Positions 4,301 through 42,708 of a DNA stretch of 64,000 nt are shown one piece after another. The notes below the pieces were generated by a model. It ran no database searches and was not told where the DNA came from. It saw nothing but the letters and a program-made list of their open reading frames with translations. The first letter of the stretch is position 1; the number at the start of each line of letters is the position of its first letter. The stretch comes from an uncultured candidatus Porisulfidus sp. (lineage in GTDB: Bacteria > Pseudomonadota > Gammaproteobacteria > Poriferisulfidales > Poriferisulfidaceae): NCBI GenBank assembly GCA_965116025.1, contig OZ220480.1, forward strand, positions 398,415 to 462,414, in the 5' to 3' direction. Both the position numbers and the translations under genes were made by a program.

Positions 4301-4834
4301 TGAACGTCCCACTGAGCCGCTGGCCATTCTCCGTGTACATGGCCGTGGTGGGCGGAGTCCAACCGCCCGCCTCGTTCACGATCCTCACCTTGCCTTCCAG
4401 ATTCACCGTCAGCGCCCCGTCGCCGACCACCGCGACCCCGGGATTCCGGCCTTGGGTGGGACTGTCGGCAGAAGTGGGAGTATTGCGAGGAAGGAACGAC
4501 TTGATGGTCGTCATCTCCCCGGAAGGCTTCACGGTCAGCGTCAAGCCGCCTGTCTGACCCGTGTACTCGATAGGATTGGGAGTGGCGCTGGTGCCGCCGT
4601 AGGTCGAGGCGGCGCAGGTGACCGTTTTGGTGGCGCCGACATCGCCGCACTGGTTCGCCTTGGCGGAATGCGGAATCAGTGGGATCGAGAGAGCGGCCGT
4701 CAGCCCGGCCAGAGCGATCAGGAAACGAGGGCTATGCCCCCCCCCCCCCCCCCCCCCCCCCCTACGCGGGAAGACGACGAGGCGACGCGACGCGCGGCGC
4801 GCACGGTATCAGAAAAATGCGGGTTGACTCTCAT
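1320..4834 (-). CDS. autotransporter (type Va) copy 1: repetitive beta-helix passenger plus C-terminal beta-barrel; reading frame interrupted at a poly-G tract in this assembly
   Basis: The ORF track gives 1320..4544 (TTG start), and the C terminus ...DYGASVLLKVRF has a terminal aromatic residue, which is typical of an autotransporter barrel. The frame stays open upstream of 4544 and encodes a classical signal peptide, HSPRFLIALAGLTAALSIPLIPHSA/KA, but has no start codon. An ATG at 4834 with an SD-like AGGA opens a leader MRVNPHFSDTVRAARRVASSSSRV that runs into 26 G (4762..4737). This leader is 1 nt out of frame with the signal peptide. Confidence 0.8.
4737..4762 (-). repeat. homopolymeric tract, 26 G on the coding strand (C on the plus strand), inside the 5' coding region of autotransporter 1
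   Basis: Counted directly as plus-strand C 4737..4762. With 26 G the ATG frame terminates as ...RVGGGGGGGGGIALVS*. With 27 or 24 G the leader fuses in frame to the signal peptide. Confidence 0.9.
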
Positions 4835-4870
4835 TGAGAAATCCTGATGGCGATGAATGATTGGAGCGGA

Positions 4871-5209
4871 TTATACCCAAAACCCACGCGCCCAAAAATC
4901 CTCACCGGATGGCCAGAGACCGATTCCATCCGAGCAGATCAGGTTTTCGAGGGCATGATTTGGCCCGTACTCTCTAAAGATCGGGACTTCCCACGCTTGC
5001 CCGGGTCGCGCCTCGTCAATCGCTGTTCGGATATCTTCAATCTTATGCCGCGCCCATGCCATGCCGTAGCCATCAGCACGATGATTTCCACCCTTCTTCC
5101 AGCCAAATTTCGCTGATACCGTATATTTTTCCGTGGCCACTATGACCTGATACTCGCCGTCTTCGGCTTTTTGCATCAGCTCCCCATTCTCAAGCGATTC
5201 CCAACCCAT
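4871..5209 (-). CDS. hypothetical protein (112 aa) directly upstream of, and co-oriented with, autotransporter 1; lower GC (about 52%)
   Basis: The ORF has protein-like composition. It ends 36 bp before the autotransporter ATG. I recognise no family. Its GC is clearly below the surrounding DNA. Confidence 0.5.
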   Translation of the reverse strand: MGWESLENGELMQKAEDGEYQVIVATEKYTVSAKFGWKKGGNHRADGYGMAWARHKIEDIRTAIDEARPGQAWEVPIFREYGPNHALENLICSDGIGLWPSGEDFWARGFWV

Positions 5210-5285
5210 CTCCGCGGATCCGTCTACGGAATATCCTGTCAGATGTCCGCGAGGTGCACTGGAACCCCATGGATCGAACAGGACT

Positions 5286-5699
5286 TTACTGCTTCATGAT
5301 TGCATTGAGGGACTCGATTTCGCGCTTGAGCGCCGCGGTCATTTGCCATGGCTTGACCTCGGGCTACCACTCCAAAAACTCTTTCACGGAAGCACCGCTC
5401 TCGAGGTTCTTGAAGAGCGCGCAAACAGGCGCCCTGGTTCCCGTGAAGGACAAGGCTCCGCTAATCTTGCGGGAATTGCGTTCCACCGCGGAACATGTCG
5501 TCCAGTCGGCTATTTCTTCATCTCTTGCCAGTTCGCGACCGGTCTTTGGCCAAGCGCGCCACTTTCCTCCCGTTTCGCCTCGAAAGCGGACGGATTCCGC
5601 GGGGATAGACTTCGCAAGTAATTGATTTTTCAACGTTCTCTTTTTTCGAGGTCCGATGCGGCAAATACGATAAAGACGAGAGCGCAACCCTCGCGCCAA
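5286..5699 (-). pseudogene. DUF433-like gene interrupted by an in-frame TAG
   Basis: ORF 5364..5699 ends ...ISGALSFTGTRAPVCALFKNLESGASVKEFLEW, matching the DUF433 core (GTRIPV...G.S.EEIL). The same frame continues after the TAG at 5364-5366 as PEVKPWQMTAALKREIESLNAIMKQ, resembling the usual FP.LT.E.I.AAL tail, and stops at 5286. Confidence 0.35.
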
Positions 5700-5963
5700 G
5701 AGACTCGTTCGTAAGACTATGTTTATACTAGAATTTTAATACGCTACAATACCTGCCCGGATCACGAGAACCCTCATGCGCGCGCTCAGGCCTTCGCTGT
5801 CGCTCTCGAGCGCGTCGCAACGCGTCGATCCCATCCGCGAGACCAGCCGAATCGCCCGATTCGGCCATCGGGAGCGCCAAGACTTCCTAGGCTTGACCGA
5901 AGCCTTGGCGCGTCTCAGTTGGTTGTCGAAAGACCTTGATCGATACCAGGGCGAGGCCCTCCG

Positions 5964-8189
5964 ATGGTTCCTGCCCTGAGGTGGTTCCTGGCCGGCCCCT
6001 GGCCGGTCCTCGGGATCTTCTTGCTGCTGGCCGGGTCGCTGGCGATCATGGCCGAGGCGACCCAAAGTTCCGGGCATTTCCATCGCTGGCAGTGGTGGGT
6101 GGCCGGTTTCAACGGCGCGCTGGCCCTGGCGCTTCTGGCGCTGATCGGGCTCAGCCTTTCCGGCTTGATCCGCAGGCTGCGCCTGCGCGAGGCCGGCTCG
6201 CGCCTATCGTTGCGCATGACGGCCATGTTCGCCGGCTTCACGCTGATCCCGACCGCGATGGTGTTCGGCTTCTCGGTCTGGCTGATCTCCAGCGGAATCG
6301 ACAGCTGGTTCGACGTGGGAGTCGACGATACCTTGGGCAAGGCGATGGAGTTGAGCCGAACGTCCATCGACATGCAGATGCGGGAGCGCCGCGGCCAGGT
6401 GGAGCGTCTGTTGCGAGAGCCAGCGGACGTGGGCGACCCCGAGACCATGGTCGTGCGCATGAACGACCTGGTGGTCCAGACCGGGGCGCTGGAGGCGACC
6501 CTGCTGGATTCCAGCAATAAGATCGTCGCCTCCCAAGGAGAGGTTCCGGACATTCTTCCAGACCTGCCAGGCGAGGCCCAGCTCCAGCTGTTGCGGGAAA
6601 GCGGCGTTTACATGGCGCAGGAAGAGCACCCGGAGCACGGCCCCATCGTCCGCGTCCTGGTTCAGGTCCCGTCGCTGGTCCAGGAACTGCCTCTGGCCAC
6701 CGAGGATTCGCCATTGTCCCTGAGTCGGGAAATGCCCCTGATGAACCAGGAGTTGCCCCTGACGCTGCAAATCCTGTACCCGGTGTCCGAATACATGCTG
6801 GGCCTGACCGACAGCGTCGAGAAGGCGTCCGACACGTATCGGTTGCTTCTGGAGCTTCGGGGCCCCCTGAAATACAACCTCACCTTCGCGATGTCCCTGG
6901 CGGTCCTGCTGGGACTGCTGTTCGCGATATGGGCGGCCCTTTATTCCGCGCAACGCATCCTCTCCCCGATCGCGGAACTCTCGCGAGGCATCGAGGCCGT
7001 GGCGGCGGGCGAGTACAGCCAGCGTCTTCCGGCCGGGCGGCGCGACGAGCTCGGCCAGATGACGCGCTCTTACAACGGCATGATCGAGCGCCTGGCCAAC
7101 GCCCGGTACGTGGCGGAGACCCGCCGCCTGCTGATCGAGCGCCAGCACGCCTACCTGCATACGGTGCTGGAGCATCTGTCTTCCGGAGTCATCAGCGTCA
7201 ATGATCGCGGCGAGGTGGTCACCGTCAACCACGCCGTTAGCTCGATTCTGGAACTGGAGATCGGGCGATACCTCAAGAAGCCCCTCGGTCTCCCGCGCCA
7301 GGAGCATCCCCGGCTGGAGCCGCTGTGGGATTTGATGGACCGCCAACAGCATAGCGACGACGACCTCGGGGAGCAAGTGCAGATCGACGACGAGCTCAAG
7401 ATTCTGCATTGCCATGGCGCGCGACTGCCGAACGAGGCCGGCTACATAGTGGTGTTTGAGGACATCACGGACCTGCGGCAGGCGCAGCGGCAGGCGGCCT
7501 GGGGCGAGGTGGCCCGGCGAATGGCGCACGAGATCAAGAATCCGCTGACCCCCATCCGCCTCTCGGCCGAACGAATGCGGAGCCGCCTCCAGCCGCTCCT
7601 CGCCGCGAAAGACTCCGAGATCCTGCTGCGCTCCACGCGAACCATCGTGCGCCAGGTGGAATCGATGAATACCATGATCGACGAGTTTCGCGAGCATGCC
7701 GCCGCGCGCTTCACGCCCGAGAGGATGGATCTGAACGCTTTGAGCAGGGAGGTCCTCGATCTGTACATGAGCGACCGCGCGCGAATCTCCATCCACGCCG
7801 ATCTGAGCCACGCCCCGGCCTGGATCCGGGGCGACCCGGACCGAATGCGCCAGTTGCTGCATAACCTGATCAAGAACGCCCGGGAAGCGCAGGAGCGGCA
7901 GGCTAAAGGGTCGATCATCCTGAGCACCCGAGCGCGAAAGGGCGTGGTGACGCTGAAGGTGCGCGACTCCGGCCCCGGCTTCGCGCCAGAAATCCTCGGC
8001 CGGGCTCTGGAGCCGTACGTCACCACCAAGACCAGCGGGCATGGCCTGGGGCTCGCCGTCGTGTTCCGCGTCACGGAAGATCATCAAGGACGGATTCGCG
8101 TATACAATGACCCGGACGGAGGCGGGTGCGTGGAAATCGAGTTCGACGCGGCATCGCGGGAAGATCTGAGCCAGACGAGTCTCTTCTGA
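5964..8189 (+). CDS. ntrY: NtrY-like sensor histidine kinase (N-terminal transmembrane block, HAMP, PAS, HisKA, HATPase)
   Basis: 741 aa. It has several N-terminal hydrophobic segments, the H-box HEIKNPLTPIRLSAERM, and a C-terminal G-box (GHGLGLAVV). It is followed by an NtrX-like regulator and trkA, as in the conserved fmt-(rsmB)-ntrY-ntrX-trkA neighbourhood. Confidence 0.8.
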   Translation: MVPALRWFLAGPWPVLGIFLLLAGSLAIMAEATQSSGHFHRWQWWVAGFNGALALALLALIGLSLSGLIRRLRLREAGSRLSLRMTAMFAGFTLIPTAMVFGFSVWLISSGIDSWFDVGVDDTLGKAMELSRTSIDMQMRERRGQVERLLREPADVGDPETMVVRMNDLVVQTGALEATLLDSSNKIVASQGEVPDILPDLPGEAQLQLLRESGVYMAQEEHPEHGPIVRVLVQVPSLVQELPLATEDSPLSLSREMPLMNQELPLTLQILYPVSEYMLGLTDSVEKASDTYRLLLELRGPLKYNLTFAMSLAVLLGLLFAIWAALYSAQRILSPIAELSRGIEAVAAGEYSQRLPAGRRDELGQMTRSYNGMIERLANARYVAETRRLLIERQHAYLHTVLEHLSSGVISVNDRGEVVTVNHAVSSILELEIGRYLKKPLGLPRQEHPRLEPLWDLMDRQQHSDDDLGEQVQIDDELKILHCHGARLPNEAGYIVVFEDITDLRQAQRQAAWGEVARRMAHEIKNPLTPIRLSAERMRSRLQPLLAAKDSEILLRSTRTIVRQVESMNTMIDEFREHAAARFTPERMDLNALSREVLDLYMSDRARISIHADLSHAPAWIRGDPDRMRQLLHNLIKNAREAQERQAKGSIILSTRARKGVVTLKVRDSGPGFAPEILGRALEPYVTTKTSGHGLGLAVVFRVTEDHQGRIRVYNDPDGGGCVEIEFDAASREDLSQTSLF

Positions 8190-9600: not shown

Positions 9601-10962
9601 ATGAAGATCATCATTCTCGGGGCGGGCCGGATCGGTAGCTCGCTGGCGGTCGGACTGGCTCAGGAAAACAGCGAGATCACGCTGGTGGACCTGGAGGAGA
9701 GCAGCCTGAGCGCCGTCTCCAGCCACGTGGACCTGCGCGCCATCTGCGGCAACGGGGCGCACCCCAACATTCTGCGGCAGGCCGGCGCCGAGGATGCCGA
9801 CATGCTGGTCGCGCTGACCCGCAGCGACGAGGTCAACATGATCGCCTGCCAAGTCGCCTACAGCCTGTTCAACACGCCCCAGCGGATCGCCCGGGTGCGG
9901 GCCTCGGAGTACCTGACGCAGGGCGATCTGTTCATGACGGAGTCCCTGCCCATCGACGTTCTGATCAGTCCGGAGCAGATCGCGGCGCGCAACGTCGAGC
10001 AACTGATCCGCCATCCCGGCCCTCTGCAGGTGTTCGAGTTCGCCGACGGTCTGGTGAAGCTCGCTATGGTGCGCGTCTCCCCCGGCGCCGAGGCCGCCGG
10101 GCGCAGCCTGCTCGACCTGCGCCACAGCCTTCCGGACATCCAGCTGCGCGTGGCCGCCGTCTACCGGGACCAGCGACTCCTGAAGCCGGAGCCCGAGTTG
10201 CGCCTCAAGGCGCACGACGAGATCTTCGTTCTCGCGCGCGCGGAGCAGCTCGGCGCGGTCGTCAAGAAATTGCGCGTCCGGGTCGGTCGGAGCCGCCACA
10301 TCGTCATCGCCGGCGGCGGCAACGTCGGCCACGGCGTGGCCGCGCGGCTGGAGTCGGTCTGCCACGTCAAGATCATCGAGCACGACGAGCACCGCGCCCG
10401 CTATCTGTCGGAGCAGCTGTCCCGGGCCACGGTGCTGCAGGGCAACGCGACCGACGACAAGCTGCTGCTCGACGAGAACATCCGGGACATGGACGTTTTC
10501 TGCGCGCTGACCAACAACGAGGAAGCCAATATTCTGTCGGCCATGCAGGCCAAGCGCATGGGGGCGTCCACCACGATCGCCCTGATTGACCGGCCGATCT
10601 ACCTCGACCTGATCGAGCGCTCCATCGATATCGCGGTCTCTCCCCAGCAGGCCACGTTGAGCGAGCTGCTGACGCACATTCGCCAGGGAGACGTGCTCGC
10701 GGTGCACTCGCTGCGGCGCGGACGCGCCGAGGCTCTGGAGGCCAAGGCCCACCGCACGGCCGCGGCGATCGGCAAGCCGATCGGAGAGCTCGACCTTCCA
10801 GCTGGCGCCGCCATCATCGCGCTGGTCCGCGGCGGCGAGATGATTCTGCCGAACGCGCTCAGCGCGATTCAGCCAGATGATCGCGTCATCCTGTTCATCA
10901 GCGACAAGCGATACCTGAAGGACGTCGAGCGCCTGTTCCAGGTCAGCGCCACGTTTTTCTGA
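9601..10962 (+). CDS. trkA: Trk potassium uptake protein, NAD-binding subunit
   Basis: It starts MKIIILGAGRIGSSLA and carries two Rossmann-type GxGxxG segments (the second is IVIAGGGNVGHGVA). 453 aa. Confidence 0.9.
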   Translation: MKIIILGAGRIGSSLAVGLAQENSEITLVDLEESSLSAVSSHVDLRAICGNGAHPNILRQAGAEDADMLVALTRSDEVNMIACQVAYSLFNTPQRIARVRASEYLTQGDLFMTESLPIDVLISPEQIAARNVEQLIRHPGPLQVFEFADGLVKLAMVRVSPGAEAAGRSLLDLRHSLPDIQLRVAAVYRDQRLLKPEPELRLKAHDEIFVLARAEQLGAVVKKLRVRVGRSRHIVIAGGGNVGHGVAARLESVCHVKIIEHDEHRARYLSEQLSRATVLQGNATDDKLLLDENIRDMDVFCALTNNEEANILSAMQAKRMGASTTIALIDRPIYLDLIERSIDIAVSPQQATLSELLTHIRQGDVLAVHSLRRGRAEALEAKAHRTAAAIGKPIGELDLPAGAAIIALVRGGEMILPNALSAIQPDDRVILFISDKRYLKDVERLFQVSATFF

Positions 10963-13353: not shown

Positions 13354-13515
13354 GAAACTCTGGTCCCCGCGCGGCGGGTATAGGCTGGACTTCCCGGGAT
13401 TGATCGAGGCGGGATTCGTCCTAGCCGGAACGCGGTGTCGGCCAGCACGGGGCCATGGAACGGGCGGCCATGAGTCTTCCGTCCTCTTTGGTCATTTAGA
13501 GTCTAGAGTCGCGCC

Positions 13516-13629
13516 CTACGCGCCATACAAAACGTCCGTTATCAGATACGCGAGCCACGCGAACACCGCGAGGATCGGAGCGTACAGGCACAGCAATATT
13601 ATCGCCCAATGCCGCAGTTTCCGCATCAT
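13516..13629 (-). CDS. 37-aa hydrophobic peptide (predicted single transmembrane helix)
   Basis: An AGG sits before the ATGATG start. The product is MMRKLRHWAIILLCLYAPILAVFAWLAYLITDVLYGA. It is the third ORF of a tightly packed trio; see the findings. Confidence 0.35.
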   Translation of the reverse strand: MMRKLRHWAIILLCLYAPILAVFAWLAYLITDVLYGA

Positions 13630-13654
13630 ACCTACAACGTGGCCAGCTTGCGAC

Positions 13655-13861
13655 CTAGCGCCAGCGATTGTCGCAGGCACCAATCGTGCCGTCCGCGTGC
13701 GTGAGCAGCAGGTCGTGCTCAGCAGGCTTGAGCTGCTCCCCCGCGCGCCAGCACCGATGCAGAACTTGCACTCTCGATGCCTCGCCATTCCCCACCAGAC
13801 TGGGCGAGTCTTCGGGATCTTCCCGAAATTGAATAACGTCGTCGTGCTTGCCGCCCATCAT
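13655..13861 (-). CDS. 68-aa hypothetical protein whose start overlaps the stop of the upstream 47-aa ORF
   Basis: ORF track 13655..13861. Its ATG overlaps the TGA of the upstream ORF (ATGA). I recognise no family. Confidence 0.4.
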   Translation of the reverse strand: MMGGKHDDVIQFREDPEDSPSLVGNGEASRVQVLHRCWRAGEQLKPAEHDLLLTHADGTIGACDNRWR

Positions 13862-14001
13862 CCCAAGAAGTCAAAATCGGACTCGACCAACTCGTCCGCG
13901 CTCACGCCCATAAGCGTGACGCTCACGCCTTCCCGGCACTCGGTGATCACCGCGTTACTGGCTTCGCTGTCCGTGATCGTCAAGTCTTTGTATTTCGCCA
14001 T
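13858..14001 (-). CDS. 47-aa ORF ending in the C-terminal motif ...ELVESDFDFLG, which it shares with the two RTX-like proteins
   Basis: Manual translation of the minus strand gives MAKYKDLTITDSEASNAVITECREGVSVTLMGVSADELVESDFDFLG*. The stop is at 13860..13858 and overlaps the start of the next ORF. It falls below the length cutoff of the ORF track. Confidence 0.45.
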   Translation of the reverse strand: MAKYKDLTITDSEASNAVITECREGVSVTLMGVSADELVESDFDFLG

Positions 14002-14206
14002 ACTAATTTAGACGCGCTCCGCGAGGCCGGTGCTAGTGTAGCAGACTATCCCGACCGGGAATCCGCGCTAGGAAAACTTGGAATAAGCAACCTTGAAACT
14101 GGCTTTATGAACCGCGCGTGCCATCCACTCATCGATTAGCGTATCCGCGTCCAGCCCCGCCCCCGCGGGAACGCCGTTATAGAATGAGCGGCGCTCACCC
14201 ACCCCG

Positions 14207-15157
14207 ATGCTCTACCCCGCGATCCGCCCCTATTCGACCCGTCGCCTGCAGGTCGACGGGCGACATGCATTGCATGTGGAGGAGTGCGGCAGTCCAGAGG
14301 GCGTGCCGGTGGTGTTCCTGCACGGCGGCCCGGGCGCAGGTTGCGAGGACTACCATCGCCAGTTCTTCGATCCGGAGAAATACCGAATCGTGCTGTTCGA
14401 CCAGCGCGGCGCCGGACGCTCGACGCCCCACGCGGACTTGACCGACAACACCACGGCTCATCTAGTCGAGGACATCGAGAAGATCCGCGAGGAGCTGGGA
14501 ATCGACCGGTGGCTCGTGTTCGGCGGCTCCTGGGGCTCCACCCTCGGGCTGGCCTACGCCCAGAGCCACCCGAAACGCGCGCTGGGCCTGATCTTGCGCG
14601 GCATCTTCCTGTGCCGGCGGCGCGACCTCCTTTGGTTCTACCAGGAAGGCGCGGACAATATCTTCCCCGATTACTGGCGGGACTTCTTGGAGCCCATACC
14701 GGAAGCGGAGCGCGGCGACCTGATGCGGGCCTACCACCACCGACTGACCGGGCCTGACGAGCTGATCCGCATGAAGGCGGCCAAGGCCTGGGCGCTCTGG
14801 GAGGCGCGCTGCTCGAATCTGCAGCACGACGCCCGGGTCGTGGAGGCGTTCAGCGACCCGCACATGGCGCTCGGTCTGGCGCGCGTGGAGTGCCACTACT
14901 TCGTCAACCGAATCTTCCTGCCAGAGAACCAGTTGCTGAAGCGAATCGGGAAACTGACGGGGGTTCCGGGAATTCTGGTGCATGGACGCTACGATATCGT
15001 CTGCCCCATCGATCAGGCTTTCGCGCTGCATCGCGCCTGGCCCGGGTCGCGCCTGGACCTAATTGCCGAAGCGGGGCACTCGGCCCGAGAGCAGGGCATC
15101 ACCACCGCCCTGATCGCGGCCACCGAGGAGATGCACTCGCGCCTGACTCGGGCGTGA
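14207..15157 (+). CDS. pip: proline iminopeptidase
   Basis: It contains the LHGGPGAG and GGSWGSTLGLAY (GxSxG nucleophile) motifs of the alpha/beta-hydrolase Pip family. 316 aa. Confidence 0.9.
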   Translation: MLYPAIRPYSTRRLQVDGRHALHVEECGSPEGVPVVFLHGGPGAGCEDYHRQFFDPEKYRIVLFDQRGAGRSTPHADLTDNTTAHLVEDIEKIREELGIDRWLVFGGSWGSTLGLAYAQSHPKRALGLILRGIFLCRRRDLLWFYQEGADNIFPDYWRDFLEPIPEAERGDLMRAYHHRLTGPDELIRMKAAKAWALWEARCSNLQHDARVVEAFSDPHMALGLARVECHYFVNRIFLPENQLLKRIGKLTGVPGILVHGRYDIVCPIDQAFALHRAWPGSRLDLIAEAGHSAREQGITTALIAATEEMHSRLTRA

Positions 15158-15703
15158 GGCCTGGACGGCCTAGCCCAGCGCTAGTCCCCGCCTGTCCGGC
15201 GGCATCCGGTTCCGGTCGGCGACCCTCGCGGCGCGGTGCCAGCTGGAGGCCCTCTTGGGAAAAACTTCGCGGTCAGCTCGACTTCGCTCATGCCGACACC
15301 CATCCCACGGGAGGATTCTCAATTTCCGAGCTAACGCCGATTTTGAGGAAATTCCTAGATGGTTTCTCGCCTTCACGGACGCGCTAGGAAATGCGGGTAG
15401 GTATTTGGGGCGGCCGAGGACGGCTCGGGTAGATTTTCGCGAGAAAAACTCGGATTCCACCCGATTCTCGTAGAGCGTAGCTTGGCCTCTCGCGCGCCTA
15501 CGCGAGCCGCGTCTTCCAAATGGCCCGTCTTTTCCCTGAAAGCGCCAGCTTCGAGCGGTCAGAACGTGTCCCAAGCCGGAAGACCAGATATTCGGCGCGA
15601 CACGCTCCTGACATCCAGCACGTGATCCCTCCGGAAGCCCACCCACAACTTCCGGACTCGTCGGATCAGTTTCGCGCCGAGGCCGGCCGCGATCACAAGT
15701 CGG

Positions 15704-18700
15704 TCAGAAGCGAACCTTCAGCAGGACGCTCGCGCCGTAATCGTGATTGTCGCCGTCCGACGCCGCGTAGTGAGCGTCACCCGATAGCGTCGACTCCCCT
15801 TGCGCGTCCAAGACCATCACGCCCCCGCTGCCCAAACGCGCCCACGTGGACTCCACCTCCGAGCGCAGCCGCGACCCCGAAGCCATCACGTCCCGGCTCT
15901 CCGACAGCTCGCGCTCCACGTCCAATGAGGCGTACGTCTCGCCGTTCTCCAACAGTACCCCGATACGCGCCCGCGCGCTGTCCTCCGAGCGAAACGACAC
16001 CCGACCGCTTCCAGCAACGCCCGAAACGTCGGCGAAGTCGTCGACATCCACCCATGTCCACGTCAATCCTCCGCGCGGGATCAGCGCGAAGCCGTCCATC
16101 TCCATGCGCCTGCCGACCTCCACGCCGACCGCGTGACCCTCTCCGTCCAGACCGGACGCCACCATCCCCCGAGTCTCCGAGCTCAGGTCGACATCCTCGA
16201 AACGCGTGTACGAGAGCTCCCCGTCCGCGTACCAGCCGTCCTCCCCCCGCCAAGTCGCCGATGCCCCGACGCCCACGCCCGAGACCTCGATCTTCCCGCC
16301 CCGCGCGACGTCCGCCTCGCCGTCGCGGTAGTGCGCGCTCACGCCCAGCATCAGCCCCGGCGCGTCCGTAGGAACGACGATGCCCGTCTCCACGCCCCAG
16401 CGCTCGAAATCCCAAGACAGCGCGCGACCCGCATCGTCCATCTCGGTCGTGGATGTCTCCACCTCCCGCTCGCCGTCGCTCGCCAACACCCGCGCCCACG
16501 CGCCCCCGCCGTCCCGCGTCGCCGACAAACGCGCCTGACGACCGCCCGGCGCGCTCATCTCCAGCAGCACCGACGGCAGCGCCTCGTACACCCGAGCCCG
16601 GGCATGGTACGTCCGGCTGATCTCCTTCTCGGAGTCCACCTGGAACTGATGCCCGCCCGTGATCGACCTCAGCGTGACCATCCGCTCGAACACCGCGTCG
16701 TACACCCCATGCGTCCCCGTCTTCCCCGACGTCGCCTTCACCGCGTCCCCCACGGCGATCATCTTCTTCGCGCCGGCCATCAACTCCCGCTGGAAGACGT
16801 TCGGCGCGTCCTTTCCACTGTTCAGGAATTTCCCCATGACGAAAGCGATCTGCCCATGCTCGTTCTCCTTCAGGGTGACATGCAGCGCCTTGTCCGCGCT
16901 CACCGCGATCCCCGACGTCGCGCCGATCTCCGCCTTCGGCCCGATCATCAGCGTCCCGCCGTTCACCATCCGAACGCCGGCGTGCTCGCCGCCGCCGCCC
17001 ATCACCTTGCCGTTGATGGTGACCGTCTGGTCGTAGTGCCCCGCCCGGGTAGCGTGATCTTCCGCGAAGGTCCGCATGCCCTTGACATGCACCCCGTCCT
17101 TCTTGGCCCGGATCGTCGCCATCTCCCCTACCGTGACGCTGATCTTCCCGGCTTTCGGCGCGTCCTCGTCCTCGTAGGTGGTGGCCGTCTCCGCGTGCAC
17201 GCCATGCCCGTCCGCCATGATCGTTCCGCCAGCCACGTCGATCTTGATCGGGACGATCATCTCGATGTCCTGTACCCCCTCCGCGTCGTTCAAGTCTTTC
17301 ACATAGGCGAGAATGCCGTCGCCCTTCGACGTGACGCTCCCTTTCGACGTGATCTCGATCTTCCCGATCTTGGCCTCGTAGGTGGAGGGGGCTTGAGAGT
17401 CGACCGCCGTCTCGTCGGAAGCCGCCTGGGGCCGCGAACTCCCATGAACGGCGAGGATGCCGGCGGTCCTGCCTTTCAGGTCCGCCAATTCCATCTTTTC
17501 AGACTCCGTTATGGAATCCACGTCACTGTCCAAGATATCGAGCGCGTCGCCCGCGACGATCTCGCCCTTCAAGTGCTTCGCGACCACGTCGCCCCAGCCG
17601 CGATGCAGAGCGGCCACCCCCGAGCCCTTCGCGTGGATGAAGCCTTCGTTGGTGACCGTGATATCAGTCTCGTCAGTAGAATTGACCACATTAGTGAACA
17701 CGCCGTGTCCGCCAACCGGAGTCCCCGCGGTCCCGATCATCGCTCCCTCGGATACCGTCACCCGGATCGCTCCCCCGTAGATTTGCTGCTGGACGAGCAC
17801 GCCATGCCGACCCACGGTCGGCTCGTCTCCCTCCACGCCGATCCGCGCCCCGGACTTCAGCGTCACCTCAATGCCGCTGGGTTTCACGACGGCCGCCGGT
17901 TTGGTCGGTCGGAACCGATACGCATGGATGCCATCGCCACCTTCGCCAGCTGTGCCCGTCCGGGTGATCGCGCCCGCCAGATCCACCTTGACGAGACCCC
18001 CGTTATGCTCATGATGAATTTTGATCCCGTGGCCGTTCAATCCGCCCCCCATGAGGCTCCCTCCCGTCACGTTGATCGTGACCGGAACCACGGAATCGTC
18101 GTCCCCTTTCGTCGTGACTCGAATGCCTTCCGTCCACCAATAGGGCGCGACGCCCGGGTCCGTCACGACCTCGATGTCGCCGCTCGACGTGATCGAGACC
18201 TCGCTGCTGGCCTGCCCGTCCGCGGCCGGAGCGCTCTTGTCCTCGTGAAACACGTGAATCCCGGCGCGCGCGTACGCGCTTCGAGTTTCCACATGCCCGC
18301 TCTCCGTCGGATTCGCCATTTTCAGATAGCGGAGCGGATGGCTCTGAACCACGATCTTGCCCTCATGGACGATCGTGATGTCACCGCCGCCAGAAGACGA
18401 GCCCGGGGCTATCCAAACATCCCTAAGCCAGCGCTCTTCCAGACCCTCGTCCTGGAGATTCCCCGCCGACGCCCGGATCCCTTGCGAGGTCACGCTATTC
18501 TTCGCCGTCTTGATCACGGTGTCGCCCCCGCCCGAGCGATGCGCCAGTATCCCGGCATACGTCCCGTAAATCTCGCCCGCGTTCGTCACGCTGATGTCCG
18601 TGTCATGCTGAAAGTACGCTAGAACGCCGTACCCGCCCATCGGTTTGTCCTCGGTTCCGATCCGCGCCTCGTCTCCCACCATCACCTCGGCGCGGTCCTT

Positions 18701-19296
18701 CTGAGCGTCGGCGTCGCTTCCCAAGTGCTTCACGTAGACGCCGTGGTTGAGCCCCGCCCCGCGGTCCCTCGAATCAATGGCCTTCCCGATGCGCGTGACC
18801 GTCGTGGACAGCCCCGTCACGAGCCTCCGGGTCGCCCCGCTCTCAATGCGGACCCGCCCATCGAGAACGACTTTCTTCAGGGCGCCGGGCCCGCTCAGGA
18901 CGATCCCCGGCCGAGCGTCGCTCGCGCCACTGGGTATTCCACTGGACGTGATGGTGACCGTGCCCGCCCCGGAAGGCTGGACCGTCAGCGTCACGCTCCG
19001 GCCTGGCGCGGCGAGATCGTATCCGATCGGCGGGCCGTCGGCCTTGGTGTAGGTCGGGTCGTCGCAAGTGACTTCGGCGGCGCCCGAGCCGCTGGGAAGG
19101 TCGCCGCAGTTTCCCGTGTCCGCCGCCATGGCGGAGTGCGGAATCAGCGGAATGGAGAGAACGGCCGTCAATCCGGCCAGAACGGTCAGGAAACGGAGGC
19201 TATGCCCCCCCCCCCCCCCCCCCCCCCTACGCGGGAAGACGACGAGGCGACGCGAAACGCGGCGCGAATCTCGGAAACGGACAGGTTCTTGGTCAT
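15704..19296 (-). CDS. autotransporter (type Va) copy 2, paralogue of 1320..4834; reading frame interrupted at a poly-G tract in this assembly
   Basis: The ORF track gives 15704..19171 (TTG start inside the signal peptide, ...LTVLAGLTAVLSIPLIPHSAMA). Its C terminus ...LLKVRF is about 93% identical to copy 1 over roughly the last 600 aa. An ATG at 19296 opens the leader MTKNLSVSEIRAAFRVASSSSRV, followed by 23 G (19227..19205), and is 1 nt out of frame (ORF 19186..19371 in the track). Confidence 0.8.
19205..19227 (-). repeat. homopolymeric tract, 23 G on the coding strand, inside the 5' coding region of autotransporter 2
   Basis: Plus-strand C run 19205..19227. The count is consistent with the track ORF 19186..19371, which encodes ...RVGGGGGGGGIASVS*. 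24 or 21 G would restore the frame. Confidence 0.85.
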
Positions 19297-19409
19297 TATT
19301 CGTCCCTTTTCAAGGATCAATCTCGGATGGCCGCGCATTATACCCCCAGCGCCCGCGCGCTTCCAAACCAAAATAATCGCGCCGAATCGCCACCGCCGAG
19401 CGCGCCCTG

Positions 19410-19415
19410 TATAAT
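19410..19415 (+). promoter_or_regulatory. candidate -10 hexamer TATAAT for tRNA-Phe
   Basis: CTGTATAATGCC lies about 30 nt upstream of the mature tRNA 5' end. No strong -35 is evident. Confidence 0.3.
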
Positions 19416-19446
19416 GCCACGCTCCGGCTAGCGGCCCCGGACCAAA

Positions 19447-19522
19447 GGCCAGGTAGCTCAGTCGGTAGAGCAGGGGACTGAAAATCCCCGTGTCGGCGGT
19501 TCGATTCCGTCCCTGGCCACCA
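19447..19522 (+). tRNA. tRNA-Phe (GAA)
   Basis: A 76-nt cloverleaf GGCCAGGTAGCTCAGTCGGTAGAGCAGGGGACTGAAAATCCCC...TGGCCACCA, with anticodon loop CT-GAA-AA and an encoded CCA end. Confidence 0.95.
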
Positions 19523-19589
19523 GATCTCTCTCCGCAACCTCGTCAAGAGCCTCGTGGGCATCCTTCGATCGAGGTCCGGCCCGCGCCCT

Positions 19590-20979
19590 TCAAAATTCTT
19601 GCGAGAAGCTGATCTCGAGATCGAATTGATAGATCTCGATCTCGATCATTTGCGAGGGATCGAACGGATTCGGGCCTCTTTGCCGCTCCGTCGGAGAGTA
19701 CATGAAGGCGGCGCTGATCTCCCGATCACCGGACAATTTTTTGGCCAGGCCGATGGTGTAGTGGTTCTCCACGACCGCCGGTGCCAAGATGTTCAGCAAC
19801 GTCTCGTCGCGCGGAATGGGGTGCTCGGCGAAGCTCGCGCCCACGCGAAGCGTCAGGTCCGGAGAGATCGCGTACCGCGCGCCGATCCTGTACACATTCA
19901 TATCCTCCCAGCCGAACCCCGCTCCATGGTCGCCCCCGAGGCGGCTTTCCGGTCGTCCCCGCCCAGCGTCGGACAGCGGAAGACGTTCGAGACCGGATTC
20001 GCCACCGAATCGATCTCGCCGTACCAGATTTTCTGGAAATCGAAGACCAAGACCAGACCGCTTGATGATTTCAGGGCGAAGCCAGCCGTCATCGAGGGTG
20101 GAATGTCGAAATCCCCGTCCTCGGCGAACAAACTCGCGTAGTCGTCGAGCTCGGTCATGAACATCCGCGACTGATACGCCAAGCCGATGTCCAGATACGA
20201 GACCGGGCTCCACAGCATTCCCACCCTCGCTCCGTAGCCGAACGAGAAATCCCGGCCCTTGTCGGTGAGACCGTCGGGCCACTTCTCTCCGTCGCTTCGC
20301 GCGACATCCTCGGTATACCCGGTGAACGCGGAAAGCCCCTTCCCTCGGAACGCCTGGACCGCCAGTACCGGGCTCACGCCCAGCGAAAGTCGCTCGCCGA
20401 CCTTCCGCGAGTAGATGATCACCAGGAACAGCTGGGTCAGATCCACGCCGGCGACGCCCCTCCATACGTCCCTGGAAAGCTCTGGACAGGCTTGGGCCCG
20501 GAGCCATCCGGGTCGAACGTGGCGATTCCCTCGTTCCACACCGTGTTCATCCCGCCATTCGCGTACAGGGTGATGCCCAGCGAGCTTCGCTCGTCCAACG
20601 GGTGGTTGTAGCCGACTGGGGGGACCGGAAAGCAGTCGCGGTCGCTGTCCATGTCGTTGGGCCCCACCGTGAAAGCGACGCCCGGGCCATTCGCCGCGCT
20701 CGCGCCCTTCTCGTAGGCCTGCCGGGGGCTGAAAATGGCCAAGCCCGCGTCGAGTCTTCGTCCTAGATGGACCATTCCCGCGGGATTCGTCGCCGCCGCG
20801 ATCGCGTCTTGCGGAAGCATCACCCCCGCGCCCGCCATACCCTTGCTTTTCGTCCCGTATCCGTGCGCGAAATAGCCATTCGTCGCCATCGCGCACGGCA
20901 CCGCCAGCGCGCAAGCCACGCACGCCCACAAGACGCCAGGCCAGATCCCGTCGCGCATGACGTTCCTCCGCGCGCGCAT
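19590..20979 (-). pseudogene. FadL/TodX-family outer-membrane transporter gene carrying two frameshifts
   Basis: Three consecutive minus-strand ORFs in three different frames (20437..21336, 19898..20929, 19590..20507) encode, in order, the N-terminal, middle and C-terminal parts. The N-terminal part has a signal peptide and the motif ATNGYFAHGYGTKSKGMAGAG. The C-terminal part ends ...LEISFSQEF. The frame switches fall near 20470-20500 and 19930-19960. Confidence 0.6.
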
Positions 20980-21057
20980 CCCGGACGTCTCGAGTCTACC
21001 GAACGCCCCCCGCGAGTCAATTCTCGCCTCTGGCGTCCGCGCGCGCTCGGCCGCGCC

Positions 21058-21078
21058 TAATTGCAGACATCCTGACCT
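21058..21078. repeat. left terminal inverted repeat of the IS
   Basis: CAGACATCCTGACCT at 21064-21078 is the reverse complement of 23445-23459. Confidence 0.65.
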
Positions 21079-21195
21079 GGTAGTCTGATATCGCGGGCGG
21101 GCGGCCCCTCGAACCGCCTTGATTTTCCTGTTTTCTCTGGCGTTCCGGGTCGGCGCGCGCTGGCGTTTTTCCCGGTCTCGTGATATAATATTATT

Positions 21196-23424
21196 ATGAC
21201 GCATAATGTAGGAGATCGCGTGTCCGGACTTCCCCTCAGCCCGACCGAGGCCACCCCCATCAGCGGCTCCCTCTCGTGGGCCGTCATCGACGACATCGTC
21301 TGGTACTTCTCCGGTCTCCAGCCGATCGACTTCCATCTCGCCGGAGACCGGAAATCCCGGTTGCTGCGGGTGGCGAAGCTACGCCTGGCCAACCGGGTGC
21401 CAGAGGGCGATCTGGCGCGCGCCTTCGACCTATCGCGCTCGACGGTCACGCGGGCGGCGCGGAAGCTTCGCGAGCGGGGCGAGGCGGCGTTCCGGGAGCC
21501 GACGCTTCGGCCCGGGGCCGGGCGGCGGCGCAGCGTGGTGACCCCGGAGAAGGCGCGCCGCGCCGAGCGCATGCTGGCCGAGGGGGAGACCCGCGGCGCG
21601 TGCGCGGCGGCCCTCGGCATCCCGATCAGCACGTTCTACGAGAACCTGCGCGCCGGGGTCATCCACAAGCCGGCGCCCGACCCGGGGGCGTCCGAGCGCT
21701 CCGAGCGCGCGGAGCGAGACCGTAAGCCGGCGCGCGGGCGCGCCTGCCACGACGACGAGCGCCGGCGGCTCGCCGCCGCCGGAACGCTGGCCGAGGCCGC
21801 GCCCCGCTTCGACCGCCCGGCCCGCTCGGTCGCCGGCGGCGGCGTCCTCGCCGCCCTTCCCGCCCTGCTCCGGGAAGGACTGCTGGAGCCCGCCCGCCGC
21901 ATGCTCCGCCTGCCCGACGGCTACTACGGACTGTCCGCCGTGCTGCTCACCTGCGCCTTCCTGACCCTCTCCCGCGCCCGCGCCCCCGAGGCCCTGCGCC
22001 ACCAGGCGCCCGGAGAGTGGGGCCTCCCGCTCGGACTCGACCGCTGCCCCGAGGTCAAGACCCTGCGCCGGAAGACGGCCCTGATCACCGATGCCGAGGA
22101 GACCGTCCACGCTTGGCAGAGCGCCCTGGCGCGCGCCTGGATGGAGGACGAGCGCGACGACTGGATGACCTTGGCCGTGGACGGCCACGTCAAGGTCTAC
22201 CACGGACGAAAGGGGCGCTTGCCCAAGGGCTTCGTCTCGCGCCAGAAGCTGTGTCTGCCGGCGTCCGCCAGCTACTGGGTCAACGTCCTTGGCGGCAAGC
22301 CCCTGCTGTGCCTGCATAAGAAGCTGGACCCGAAGCTGACGCGCGCCCTGGAGGAGGACGTCCTGCCCGAGCTGGAGCGGATGGGTCAGGTTCCCGCGTC
22401 CGCGCCAGACCTGCGCCAGGGCGGGCGCCCGATGGCCACCCTGGCGTTCGACCGCGAGGGCTGGAGCCCGCAGCTGTTCGCGCGCCTGGCGCGCCGTGGC
22501 GTCGCCTGCGTGACCTGGCGCAAGGGCTCCCGAGAGGACGACTGGCCGCGCGCCGAGTTCCACTCATGCGCGGTTCCGGTTCACGGCCCGGTCGGGAGAG
22601 GCGGCTCGCTGACCGTCTCGCTGGCCGAGCGCCGGGTCGAGCTGCGCGACGGCCTTCAGGTTCGGGAGATCCGCCGCCTGCTGGAGAGTGGGCGGCAGGC
22701 GGCGCTGATCACGACCCACCCGGACATGCCGACCGAGGAGGTCGCCGGCGCCATGTTCTCGCGCTGGTCGCAGGAGAACTTCTTCAAATACATGCGCGAG
22801 GAGTTCCGGCTCGACGCCTTGCCGGAGCATGCCGTGGAGCCGCTCGACCCGGAGACCCGGGTGGTCAATCCCGAGCGGCGGGAGGCGCGGAAAGAAGTCG
22901 AGCGGATCAAGCGGAGGCTTCAGTCCGTCGAGACGCGGGCTCGCCGGAAGCGCGCGAGGGGAACGGACGCGACCGGGCTTGAGGCCGAGGCGCGCGCGCT
23001 TCGGAAGCGTCTTGAGGAAGAGACGCTCCGCCGCGACGGGCTGCCTGCCCACGTGCGCGCCGGGGAGCTCCCGAAAGAGCGGCGGCTCGACGCCTTGCCG
23101 GTCGCCCGGCGCCTGTTCGCCGATCTCATCCGCATGATCTGCTACCGCGCCGAGACCCGCATGATGGCGGCCTCGGTCGCGGCGCCGGGGCGGAAGCCCT
23201 TGGCGCGCAAAGCGCTCGCCGCCCTGATGCGGGCCGACGCCCATCTCCGGCCCGACCCGGAGCGCGGCGTCCTTGAGGTTGAGCTGCTCGGCTTCGCCAA
23301 CGCCGCCGCCGAGCGAGCCCTCCGCCCGCTGCTCGACGAGCTCAATCGAACCGAAACCCGCTACCCCGGAACCGACCTCCAGCTCGTCTATCGCGTCGCC
23401 GGCGAGCCGCCCACCGAGGAATAG
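21196..23424 (+). CDS. DDE transposase (IS4-superfamily-like), 742 aa
   Basis: It has an N-terminal HTH (DLARAFDLSRSTVTRAARKL), candidate catalytic D residues in LAVDGHVKVY and LAFDREGW, and the signature FSRWSQENFFKY, which matches the Y(2)R(3)E...K motif of the IS4-type DDE_Tnp_1 family. It is flanked by inverted repeats. Confidence 0.6.
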   Translation: MTHNVGDRVSGLPLSPTEATPISGSLSWAVIDDIVWYFSGLQPIDFHLAGDRKSRLLRVAKLRLANRVPEGDLARAFDLSRSTVTRAARKLRERGEAAFREPTLRPGAGRRRSVVTPEKARRAERMLAEGETRGACAAALGIPISTFYENLRAGVIHKPAPDPGASERSERAERDRKPARGRACHDDERRRLAAAGTLAEAAPRFDRPARSVAGGGVLAALPALLREGLLEPARRMLRLPDGYYGLSAVLLTCAFLTLSRARAPEALRHQAPGEWGLPLGLDRCPEVKTLRRKTALITDAEETVHAWQSALARAWMEDERDDWMTLAVDGHVKVYHGRKGRLPKGFVSRQKLCLPASASYWVNVLGGKPLLCLHKKLDPKLTRALEEDVLPELERMGQVPASAPDLRQGGRPMATLAFDREGWSPQLFARLARRGVACVTWRKGSREDDWPRAEFHSCAVPVHGPVGRGGSLTVSLAERRVELRDGLQVREIRRLLESGRQAALITTHPDMPTEEVAGAMFSRWSQENFFKYMREEFRLDALPEHAVEPLDPETRVVNPERREARKEVERIKRRLQSVETRARRKRARGTDATGLEAEARALRKRLEEETLRRDGLPAHVRAGELPKERRLDALPVARRLFADLIRMICYRAETRMMAASVAAPGRKPLARKALAALMRADAHLRPDPERGVLEVELLGFANAAAERALRPLLDELNRTETRYPGTDLQLVYRVAGEPPTEE

Positions 23425-23442
23425 CGCGTCATCCTATAATCA

Positions 23443-23775
23443 TTAGGTCAGGATGTCTGAATTGTGGCGCCCGCGCGGGACGTACCGTCCGTCCTCGAAT
23501 CCGCTGAAGATCTGGTCGACCAGCGGATGCCGGATCGGGCGCGGGTCCTCCTCCCGCTCCAAGTTGCGCTCCGCGACGTACGTCTCGACCGGCCGCTCGT
23601 CCACCAGAACCCGATACCAGGGCCGGTCCCGGGGTGGGCGGGACCGCGCGTTGCGCTCGTACCACTCGTCGCTCCCCCGGAACGTCGGGTCCACGTCGAA
23701 GACCACGCCCCGATAGCCGAACAGTCGGTGCGCGACCAGTTGTCCCGGGGCGAATAGCGCCTGACTCTCGCGCAT
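23443..23775 (-). CDS. hspQ: heat-shock protein HspQ (YccV-like hemimethylated-DNA-binding domain); 3' end fused into the IS inverted repeat
   Basis: The product reads ...GQLVAHRLFGYRGVVFDVDP...WYRVLVDERPVETYVAE, typical of HspQ. The likely start is the internal Met at 23775. The final 22 nt lie inside the IS right inverted repeat. Confidence 0.7.
   Translation of the reverse strand: MRESQALFAPGQLVAHRLFGYRGVVFDVDPTFRGSDEWYERNARSRPPRDRPWYRVLVDERPVETYVAERNLEREEDPRPIRHPLVDQIFSGFEDGRYVPRGRHNSDILT
23445..23465. repeat. right terminal inverted repeat of the IS
   Basis: AGGTCAGGATGTCTG at 23445-23459. It overlaps the last 7 codons of hspQ. Confidence 0.65.
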
Positions 23776-23835
23776 CTCCCTCAGCCCTGCTCCCGCCACT
23801 TGCTATACTGGCGAAAATCGCTAGGCGCGACGCTT

Positions 23836-41623: not shown

Positions 41624-42454
41624 GTGAGTCCCGTTCAAATTCCACCGTTGAAGATACAGGGAATCAAGACTAGAGCGATACCGTTTATTCGGGATCGTGT
41701 TGATTGGGAAGGTTCTGGCCGTTGGATAGAACCTTTTGTTGGTTCGGCCGTCGTCCCTTTCAACATAAAGCCGGACCGCGCTCTGCTTGGCGACGCCAAC
41801 CCGCATTTGATCCGCTTTTATAAATCCATACAGCGAGAGACCGTCACCAGCGCGACAGTCCGTATTTTCTTAGAACGAGAGGGCGCATATCTCCTACGCG
41901 ACGGACAAGAGCATTATCATCGAGTTCGGGAGCGCTTTAACGACGCGCATGATCCGCACGATTTCCTATTCCTGAATCGCGCCTGTTTCAATGGCATGAT
42001 GCGCTTCAACAAGAAAGGATACTTCAACACTCCCTTCTGCCGGAAGCCAGAGCGCTTTCGGCCCGCCTATGTAACGAAGATCTGCAATCAAGTTCAGAGA
42101 ATCGCGGATGTTATGGCCAATACATCATGGAAGTTCGTTTGCGCTGACTGGTCCGACATTATCAGCGAAGCGCGGGAAGGCGATTTTGTGTATTGCGATC
42201 CGCCATACGCTGGACGCTTCGCGGATTACTTCAACTCCTGGGATGACGGCGACGCATCGCGGCTAGAAGACGCTTTGAAGGCATTGCCATGCCCATTTCT
42301 TTATTCCATGTGGTCAGAAAACAAGTACCGGAAGAATGATCGGCTGCATGAATCGTTTTCCCAGTATCGAATTGAGACGTTCTCTCATTTCTATCATTTG
42401 GGCGCGACCGAGAACTTGCGCAACAGGATAATTGAAGCCTTGGTTTCTGGATGA
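41624..42454 (+). CDS. D12-class (Dam-like) N6-adenine DNA methyltransferase
   Basis: It has motif I PFVGSAVV near the N terminus and motif IV DPPY (YCDPPYAGRF) near the C terminus, the alpha-class order. It is the first gene of a lower-GC block. Confidence 0.8.
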   Translation: MSPVQIPPLKIQGIKTRAIPFIRDRVDWEGSGRWIEPFVGSAVVPFNIKPDRALLGDANPHLIRFYKSIQRETVTSATVRIFLEREGAYLLRDGQEHYHRVRERFNDAHDPHDFLFLNRACFNGMMRFNKKGYFNTPFCRKPERFRPAYVTKICNQVQRIADVMANTSWKFVCADWSDIISEAREGDFVYCDPPYAGRFADYFNSWDDGDASRLEDALKALPCPFLYSMWSENKYRKNDRLHESFSQYRIETFSHFYHLGATENLRNRIIEALVSG

Positions 42455-42708
42455 AAGATTATATTCTGAATGCGCTCGCGCAAATTCAAAACGGCTATTC
42501 TCAATGTGGAATCGCTGATCGTATAGTCTCGTGTTCATCCACTTGGTTTGGACGCGAAAGCATGTCCGAACGCATCAAGTCCTGGTTGAAAGAAAACTCT
42601 AGTGACGCGCGGCGACTTTCATCACGACCCTCACTCAGGTCCAAGAAGGCCATGATGCGAACGCCGATCAAGGAAGCGGATATCTGCCATTTATCTGGGC
42701 AGCCGTAA
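42451..42708 (+). CDS. 85-aa ORF that exactly bridges the MTase stop and the Res-like start
   Basis: Its ATG overlaps the upstream TGA (ATGA), and its TAA overlaps the downstream ATG (TAATG). It has low complexity and no recognisable fold. Confidence 0.35.
   Translation: MKDYILNALAQIQNGYSQCGIADRIVSCSSTWFGRESMSERIKSWLKENSSDARRLSSRPSLRSKKAMMRTPIKEADICHLSGQP

Follow-up and report, generated by a model that had tools for sequence, protein, structure and literature searches.

A probably decayed fadL gene next to tRNA-Phe in a relative of the sponge symbiont genus Candidatus Porisulfidus

A gene of the FadL family of outer-membrane channels for fatty acids and hydrophobic compounds that lies beside tRNA-Phe in the DNA studied here is broken by two deletions of one base each, and our comparisons make it probable that this is genuine decay: the gene would be a young pseudogene that has kept its ancestral chromosomal position. 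The window (the whole stretch of 64,000 nucleotides that was analysed) differs from the related loci in three changes that are specific for this lineage, i.e. an inserted autotransporter segment, an insertion sequence (IS) and the two fadL deletions. Taken together, the locus looks like an ordinary case of genome reduction and of evolution by mobile elements in a relative of sponge symbionts. An earlier note had likened the region, with its tRNA-Phe as a classical integration hotspot, to a remnant genomic island, and this idea found only partial support.

Results

Just 3' of tRNA-Phe, three overlapping open reading frames, each in a different frame of the minus strand, jointly encode a complete and collinear FadL/TodX-like protein (Table 1), as had been proposed from the bare sequence. 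When the intact homologue P0001 (454 amino acids) was used as the tblastn query, it was recovered in three collinear pieces (E values of 2e-146 and 6e-55). The frame-corrected protein has 456 amino acids, of which 94-100% are covered in the alignments with 120 homologues of 440-469 amino acids; homologues of 450-460 amino acids are matched with a coverage of 98%, and the best identity is 75%. The corrected protein scores 68.1 bits against the Pfam family Toluene_X (PF03349; cut-off 29.7), whereas the separate open reading frames reach 23.5 bits, 28.4 bits and no score at all, thus none of them passes the cut-off. It also matches the TodX structures 6z38, 6z37 and 3brz over residues 237-456 (E values of 3e-11 to 7e-11). 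The individual segments are 72-76% identical to the best homologue, and a signal peptide, the N-terminal plug motif NGYFxHGYG and the terminal phenylalanine are all present. In length, collinearity, plug motif and terminal phenylalanine the protein is therefore like the FadL/TodX/OMPP1 family (PF03349; TodX structures 3BRZ/3BS0 and 6Z37/6Z38), from which it differs by a frame that is broken twice and by the replacement of family-invariant residues (R80Q, C340R); its identity to the characterised members of the family is low.

Table 1. Features of the locus, with positions in the window
Feature	Position	Strand	Evidence or remarks
pip (prolyl aminopeptidase), conserved left neighbour	14207..15157	+	TIGR01249, 413 bits; synteny
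Lineage-specific inserted segment, about 4.24 kb	15160..19400		absent in seven related genomes
Autotransporter copy 2	15704..19296	-	PF03797, 90.6 bits; TIGR01414; C-terminal beta-barrel domain
Poly-G tract of copy 2 (C23 on the plus strand)	19205..19227	-	frame analysis
tRNA-Phe promoter-like site	19387..19415	+	-10 TATAAT as in relatives; -35 is new sequence from the insert
tRNA-Phe (GAA)	19447..19522	+	ARAGORN; Rfam tRNA, 71.8 bits
fadL, probable pseudogene (FadL/TodX/OMPP1 family)	19590..20958	-	tblastn, Pfam, orthologue alignment
fadL N-terminal segment	20958-20460	-	one of three frames
fadL middle segment	20459-19953	-	one of three frames
fadL C-terminal segment	19952-19590	-	one of three frames
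fadL tblastn piece 1	20928-20461	-	P0001 amino acids 9-164; frame -2
fadL tblastn piece 2	20458-19916	-	P0001 amino acids 166-346; frame -1
fadL tblastn piece 3	19952-19593	-	P0001 amino acids 335-454; frame -3
Frameshift site 1 (C4 run on the plus strand)	20457..20460	-	1-nt deletion in a G run
Frameshift site 2 (base lost between 19952 and 19953)	19951..19953	-	orthologue alignment
fadL promoter-like site TTGACT-16-TAGACT, between IS and ATG	20993..21020	-	consensus match only
Intact IS, 2396 bp	21064..23459	+	15-bp terminal inverted repeats, target-site duplication, transposase
Transposase, 742 amino acids	21196..23424	+	Pfam Transposase_29, 337 bits; N-terminal HTH domains
yccV/hspQ-like gene	23443..23799	-	PF08755, 88 bits

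The likely start codon of the gene is the ATG at 20958, closely preceded by the Shine-Dalgarno sequence GGAGGA; the ATG at 20979, the outer limit given for the gene previously (19590..20979), is not the start. Conceptual translation from 20958 yields 173 amino acids and ends at a TGA codon (20437-20439). An uninterrupted reading frame for the complete barrel is absent, since the two deletions break the frame. Their number and nature follow from an alignment of 1.34 kb of fadL DNA from the window against ten orthologues that are intact, which contains exactly two gaps in the window sequence, both of a single nucleotide and 507 nt apart. The two frameshifts seen earlier are thus real features of the assembled sequence. 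At site 1 the window reads TATGGAG-GGGCGTC where the orthologues have GGAG[C/G]GGG (with G5 in L004 and L011); at site 2 it reads GACGA-CCGGAAAG, so that the Asp codon (GAY) before CCG is left without its third base. The guess of the earlier note for the second site (19930-19960) includes the position found here, whereas the first site is 10-40 nt outside the range that had been named for it (20470-20500).

The organism that carries this locus has no close match at hand: no conspecific genome was found in the databases searched, exact-protein look-ups returned no identical YccV or Pip protein, the best Pip homologue among 5.8 billion proteins is 86% identical, and a scan of JGI metagenomes gave only relatives with 69-76% identity. 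The proteins encoded near fadL are about 82-86% identical to their counterparts in Ca. Porisulfidus, a genus that is among the known sponge symbionts (PMC12988363). The backbone of the window is collinear with the Ca. Porisulfidus metagenome-assembled genomes L002, L003 and L006 in tblastx comparisons with the related loci; the order is fmt, ntrY, a response regulator gene, trkA, trkH, lpxL, pip and tRNA-Phe, followed by fadL, yccV, orf101 and genes for an Xre-like, a CxxCxxCC and a HAD protein, and suhB. These identities and the gene order indicate an uncultured gammaproteobacterium related to Ca. Porisulfidus. The arrangement pip, tRNA-Phe, fadL, yccV is common to the window and to L001, L002, L003 and L006, and comparison of these loci points to pip > tRNA-Phe > < fadL < yccV as the ancestral state. 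In L001-L003 fadL stands tail-to-tail with tRNA-Phe just as in the window; in L006 the distance between the two is greater by 1.8 kb. The order fadL-yccV-orf101-Xre is kept in at least nine relatives.

The position of tRNA-Phe given in the earlier note was recovered both by ARAGORN and with Rfam, and autotransporter copy 2 does lie immediately upstream of it, i.e. on its 5' side. The copy, which has its own promoter, is part of a segment that spans from the stop codon of pip to the -10 box of the tRNA gene. In seven relatives (L001, L002, L003, L006, L017, L019 and L020) the gap between pip and tRNA-Phe measures just 47-90 nt, and the -35 box of the tRNA gene is located within the last codons of pip. 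The insert has split this ancestral promoter, and the -35 box TTGACC at the end of pip has been parted from the conserved -10 box TATAAT.

Copy 2 starts with the ATG at 19296, and in the assembled form the frame closes after 36 codons. A tract of G21 or G24 would open a frame of 1196 or 1197 amino acids, respectively; the assembled G23 corresponds to the OFF state. A paralogue, copy 1, is present at 1320-4834 (ATG at 4834; PF03797, 90.5 bits), with which copy 2 shares 78-87% of its DNA sequence; here the tract (G26 at 4737-4762) is also one base short, and only G24 or G27 would give an uninterrupted frame, of 1170 or 1171 amino acids. As compared with L002 and L003, copy 1 is an insertion, too. 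Similarity searches with the non-coding stretches of the inserts (15158-15703, 4800-5963 and 13354-14206) gave no match. In both copies the ATG and about 23 codons precede the poly-G tract; the hydrophobic signal-peptide core comes after the tract and is encoded in a different frame. Judged by sequence, this pair has the architecture of phase-variable autotransporters. The designation of copy 2 as phase-variable thus holds for the hallmarks, the beta-domain and the poly-G tract that sets the frame, and the two paralogues differ in tract length (23 versus 26).

The IS between fadL and yccV is intact. Its terminal inverted repeats are perfect (15 of 15 bp: CAGACATCCTGACCT), and it is flanked by two copies of AATTG (21059-21063 and 23460-23464), a target-site duplication of 5 bp. 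No NCBIfam model matched it for a family assignment, and tblastn found no match in plasmids; a megablast search of the whole locus against plasmids returned the tRNA match only. An open reading frame at 5964-8189 had been considered as a second copy of the IS, and it turned out to encode an NtrY-type sensor kinase. The element has inserted cleanly at the stop codon of yccV: the last five codons and the stop codon of this gene are now supplied by the right end of the IS, and in silico removal of the IS together with one copy of the duplication restores the YccV end RHN plus stop codon that is found in the relatives. On the upstream side of fadL, the insertion site is separated from the ATG by 105 nt, which include the promoter-like site. 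The IS is therefore a neighbour of fadL, as the earlier note had it, and it had no role in the damage: the insertion hit the yccV stop codon, and the IS is not the cause of the fadL lesions. The clean insertion with its target-site duplication shows mobile-element activity in the source genome.

The fadL orthologues of two related sponge-symbiont genomes are affected as well. The gene of L010 carries one frameshift, caused by a 1-nt deletion that is not in a homopolymer, and the gene in the 1.76-Mb Ca. Porisulfidus chromosome L013 has five lesions (-72, +1, -1, -4 and -11 nt) as well as stop codons. A lesion common to the window and L013, which would have proved inheritance, was looked for and rejected: site 2 is intact in L013. 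The +1 in L013 is only a few bases away from site 1 of the window, a proximity that is compatible with chance. No fadL adjoins tRNA-Phe in L017, L019 or L020. As a separate observation, an autotransporter-like open reading frame with a C23 tract adjoins the decayed fadL of L013.

Discussion

If the three stop-free segments are read at face value, fadL might be intact in the organism, with two bases dropped from short G/C runs in the consensus. Both lesions are indeed 1-nt deletions within G/C runs, no in-frame stop codon is present in any of the three segments, and their identity to the best homologue has stayed at 72-76%. In addition, fadL has kept its Shine-Dalgarno sequence, its promoter-like site and the codon for the terminal phenylalanine, which counts against decay. 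Moreover, both autotransporter poly-G tracts are one base short of the in-frame length, a pattern that under-calling of homopolymers would produce; the assembly may have called G/C runs systematically too short. However, the runs in question are short, having gone from five to four bases and from three to two, and the 44 other genes of the window contain 430 G/C runs of at least four bases (106 of at least five), including runs of six to eight, that are undisturbed. A codon-usage frame scan and Pfam scans of these 44 genes (55.5 kb) detected no other split gene; two candidates, a pair of thioredoxin and ABC transporter reading frames and a pair of RTX reading frames, proved to be separate genes in each case. 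For two indels placed at random, the probability to fall into the same gene is 0.031, and the probability that both fall into fadL is 0.0006, so that the clustering in a single gene also speaks against errors (p about 0.03). Base-calling indels can furthermore not explain the substitutions R80Q and C340R, which are unique to the window and affect columns without any variation among the 120 homologues. The window is also alone in having A47M, in a column conserved in 119 of the 120, and it deviates at seven of 86 highly conserved columns, as compared to a median of zero; differences at other conserved columns are G94V, G143E, F219V and F389L. The demonstrable decay of the orthologue in L013 points in the same direction. 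Errors in the assembly are thus a rather improbable explanation for the state of the gene.

Four observations favour genuine decay, as the earlier note had suspected: (i) the other 44 genes are free of frameshifts, (ii) residues that are invariant in the 120 homologues have been substituted in the window, (iii) the window FadL is further away from the outgroup orthologues than the Ca. Porisulfidus copies, and (iv) the orthologue is degraded in L013 and frameshifted in L010. For the third point, the p-distances are 0.31-0.35 for the window and 0.24-0.31 for Ca. Porisulfidus, values that refer to fadL alone and are uncalibrated by other genes. The ratio dN/dS was left aside since saturation of synonymous sites is expected at the approximately 70% nucleotide identity to the nearest orthologue. 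The fact that three frames jointly encode a complete and collinear FadL might also be taken to mean that the full-length protein arises by recoding, through either two -1 frameshifts of the ribosome or slippage during transcription. Yet, direct reading of the two sites, ACGTATGGAGGGGCG and GACGACCGGAAAG, reveals a slippery X XXY YYZ heptamer at neither of them, a long A/T run for transcriptional slippage is absent, the 13 orthologous loci with an intact copy use a single frame, and the 120 homologues listed are full-length proteins. Such recoding is hardly conceivable for this gene.

According to the idea of a remnant island, an element that had integrated at tRNA-Phe would have left decaying cargo, consisting of fadL and perhaps also of yccV, the IS and the autotransporter. 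The tRNA-Phe (pheV/pheU) islands of Enterobacteriaceae are well-known tRNA-linked genomic islands, and the present locus resembles them in that tRNA-Phe is bordered by DNA that differs among the relatives: the 3' side is occupied by fadL-yccV in L001-L003 and L006, by a gene for a cadherin/Calx-beta protein of 5305 amino acids (an adhesin) in L017, by an AAA_14 gene and an RND efflux system in L019, and by nothing before orf101 in L020. The autotransporter segment, too, is lineage-specific. In contrast to the pheV/pheU islands, the locus has neither an integrase nor an attachment-site duplication nor a compositional shift, and its unique insert is 5' of the tRNA gene. Pfam scans of the open reading frames between 1 and 29 kb identified no tyrosine or serine integrase. 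The search for a direct repeat of the tRNA-Phe 3' end, which the earlier note had recommended, was run with 25-nt and 17-nt patterns of the tRNA ends over the 64 kb (up to three mismatches) and hit tRNA-Phe itself and one further sequence at chance level; thus, there is no tRNA-end direct repeat in the window, nor in 21 related loci. The GC content of the fadL region (0.635-0.642) falls into the range of the backbone (0.63-0.68), and only the IS deviates (0.71-0.73).

Cargo status is also at odds with the gene order: fadL-yccV-orf101-Xre recurs in at least nine relatives, and since pip-tRNA-Phe-fadL-yccV is shared with the Ca. Porisulfidus genomes, fadL most likely belongs to the backbone and not to island cargo. 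The autotransporter is an intragenomic paralogue of copy 1, and its insertion argues against an integrase because it is 5' of the tRNA gene and inside the promoter, which is not the side at which tRNA-targeting integrases insert; the IS has arrived by simple transposition with its own target duplication. An island remnant is thus very unlikely. The comparison with related genomes that had been called for accordingly gave a divided answer: it places fadL in the syntenic backbone, against the island, and it confirms that the content 3' of tRNA-Phe varies. Since this content differs among the relatives, the tRNA-Phe site is plastic, without the signatures of an integrase-borne island; the differences in fadL-yccV may stem from gain as well as from loss.

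Three changes thus set this locus apart, listed here in no order of time. An autotransporter paralogue with its own promoter and poly-G tract has come to lie between pip and the -10 box of tRNA-Phe, the 2.4-kb IS has transposed into the yccV stop codon, leaving the 5-bp duplication, and, on the preferred reading of genuine decay, fadL has lost one base at each of the two sites. Ribosomes that start at 20958 would then make a product of 173 amino acids that breaks off a few strands after the signal peptide and the plug (hatch); no 14-strand barrel would form, and the channel for hydrophobic substrates would thus be lost. We infer that FadL is dispensable in a host-associated lifestyle, which is suggested here by the relatives, and that the gene is eroding as in the sister lineages. 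The locus shares several traits with host-restricted genome reduction, as in a sulfur-oxidising sponge symbiont (PMC5361782): a surface or uptake gene broken by small indels, an active IS nearby and the parallel loss of the same gene in sister lineages. As compared to such reduced genomes (PMC5361782), the erosion in the window is mild, with one pseudogene among about 46 genes. Among the relatives, genomes are small as well, with contigs of 1.26-2.76 Mb.

The autotransporter pair is a by-product of this analysis that may be of more interest than the pseudogene and that should be regarded as a separate finding. Phase-variable autotransporters of this architecture include NalP and MspA (PMC3723659), and Campylobacter autotransporters are subject to homopolymeric tract variation and lineage-specific decay (PMC7168839). 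Like these, the proteins encoded in the window have a type V beta-domain and a G/C homopolymer in the 5' part of the coding region; unlike the known systems, which are from vertebrate pathogens, they belong to a relative of sponge symbionts and are known from sequence alone. In Neisseria, the tracts that mediate phase variation are roughly 8-14 nt long, and the G23 and G26 tracts of the window are much longer. The pair would suggest stochastic switching of surface proteins in an invertebrate symbiont.

For annotation, our results mean that a single fadL pseudogene should be entered here in place of three hypothetical open reading frames, and that tRNA-Phe should carry no island-attachment-site flag here. 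One may ask whether fadL has been lost repeatedly and independently across sponge-associated sulfur oxidisers as a selected, host-adaptive remodelling of the cell surface. If so, the cell would rid itself, for example, of a phage receptor or of a route by which lipids or toxins of the host enter. On this view, surface-protein genes have been gained at the same locus: an autotransporter with a poly-G tract in the window and L013, and a giant adhesin in L017. We regard this selective scenario as doubtful; neutral erosion is the alternative. The probable loss of fadL is one more data point on how sponge-associated sulfur oxidisers lose genes and on the activity of their IS elements; it would also show that several lineages of these bacteria can do without an outer-membrane uptake channel.

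Autotransporter genes and the region around fadL

Both autotransporter paralogues carry a very long poly-G tract, which lies between the ATG and the core of the signal peptide. Each of these tracts lacks one base for an in-frame length: the full open reading frame is obtained solely at G24/G27 for copy 1 (1170/1171 amino acids) and solely at G21/G24 for copy 2 (1196/1197 amino acids). Relative to Ca. Porisulfidus genomes, both genes are insertions.

In L013, a related Ca. Porisulfidus chromosome of 1.76 Mb, the heavily decayed fadL directly adjoins an autotransporter-like ORF with a poly-C tract. This fadL orthologue is a multi-lesion pseudogene: it has lost 72 nt in the plug region, and it carries changes of +1, -1, -4 and -11 nt as well as stop codons. 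The orthologue at the related locus L010 has a single 1-nt deletion (about 10186-10198).

The content just 3' of tRNA-Phe is different in every related lineage (L017, L019 and L020), and an att-like repeat is absent from all three loci. In the window, the insertion sequence (IS) entered at the stop codon of yccV with a 5-bp duplication (AATTG), and five IS-encoded codons now form the end of this gene. The element has a GC content of 0.71-0.73 as compared to about 0.65 for the backbone; it gave no match in searches against NCBIfam and against plasmids.

Coordinates of the features in the window and at the related loci
Feature	Sequence	Position	Strand	Details
Autotransporter copy 1	window	1320-4834	minus	G26 at 4737-4762
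lpxL-pip spacer	window	13354-14206		850 nt
Autotransporter copy 2	window	15704-19296	minus	G23 at 19205-19227
Intact IS, Transposase_29 type	window	21059-23464 (with duplications)		2396 bp; perfect 15-bp inverted repeats
Bufferin-like RiPP operon	window	31059-32966		Cys-rich ORF, MbnB/TglH/ChrH-family enzyme, DUF2063 protein
Cys-rich ORF	window	31059-31343		94 aa, signal peptide
Two adjacent RTX nonapeptide-repeat protein genes	window	34436-36437		390 and 259 aa
Low-GC block	window	41624-47098		GC 0.50-0.55
Autotransporter-like ORF	L013	6325-9231		C23 (23 nt) at 6478-6500, near 5' end
fadL orthologue	L013	10040-11254		pseudogene
3' of tRNA-Phe	L017	9124-16951		5305-aa cadherin/Calx-beta protein
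3' of tRNA-Phe	L019	9123-16214		AAA_14 gene, RND efflux system
3' of tRNA-Phe	L020	9073-9113		nothing

Other gene clusters

The lpxL-pip spacer, which measures about 50 nt in relatives, contains three small minus-strand ORFs, and a similarity search with the spacer revealed no homology. One of these ORFs ends with ...SDFDFLG, a terminus similar to that of the RTX protein encoded at 35658-36437 (...SDFDFMG). The 27-nt periodic repeats in the RTX region are present because RTX nonapeptide-repeat proteins are encoded there; a single split RTX gene was considered and rejected in favour of two separate genes.

The RiPP operon begins with the Cys-rich ORF, followed by the MbnB/TglH/ChrH-family enzyme (324 bits) and then by the DUF2063 protein. 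Finally, the low-GC block (backbone about 0.65) encodes a Dam-type methyltransferase, an N6/N4 methyltransferase and a ResIII helicase of 878 aa that carries a TnsA-like endonuclease end. The block appears to be a restriction-modification module of horizontal origin.
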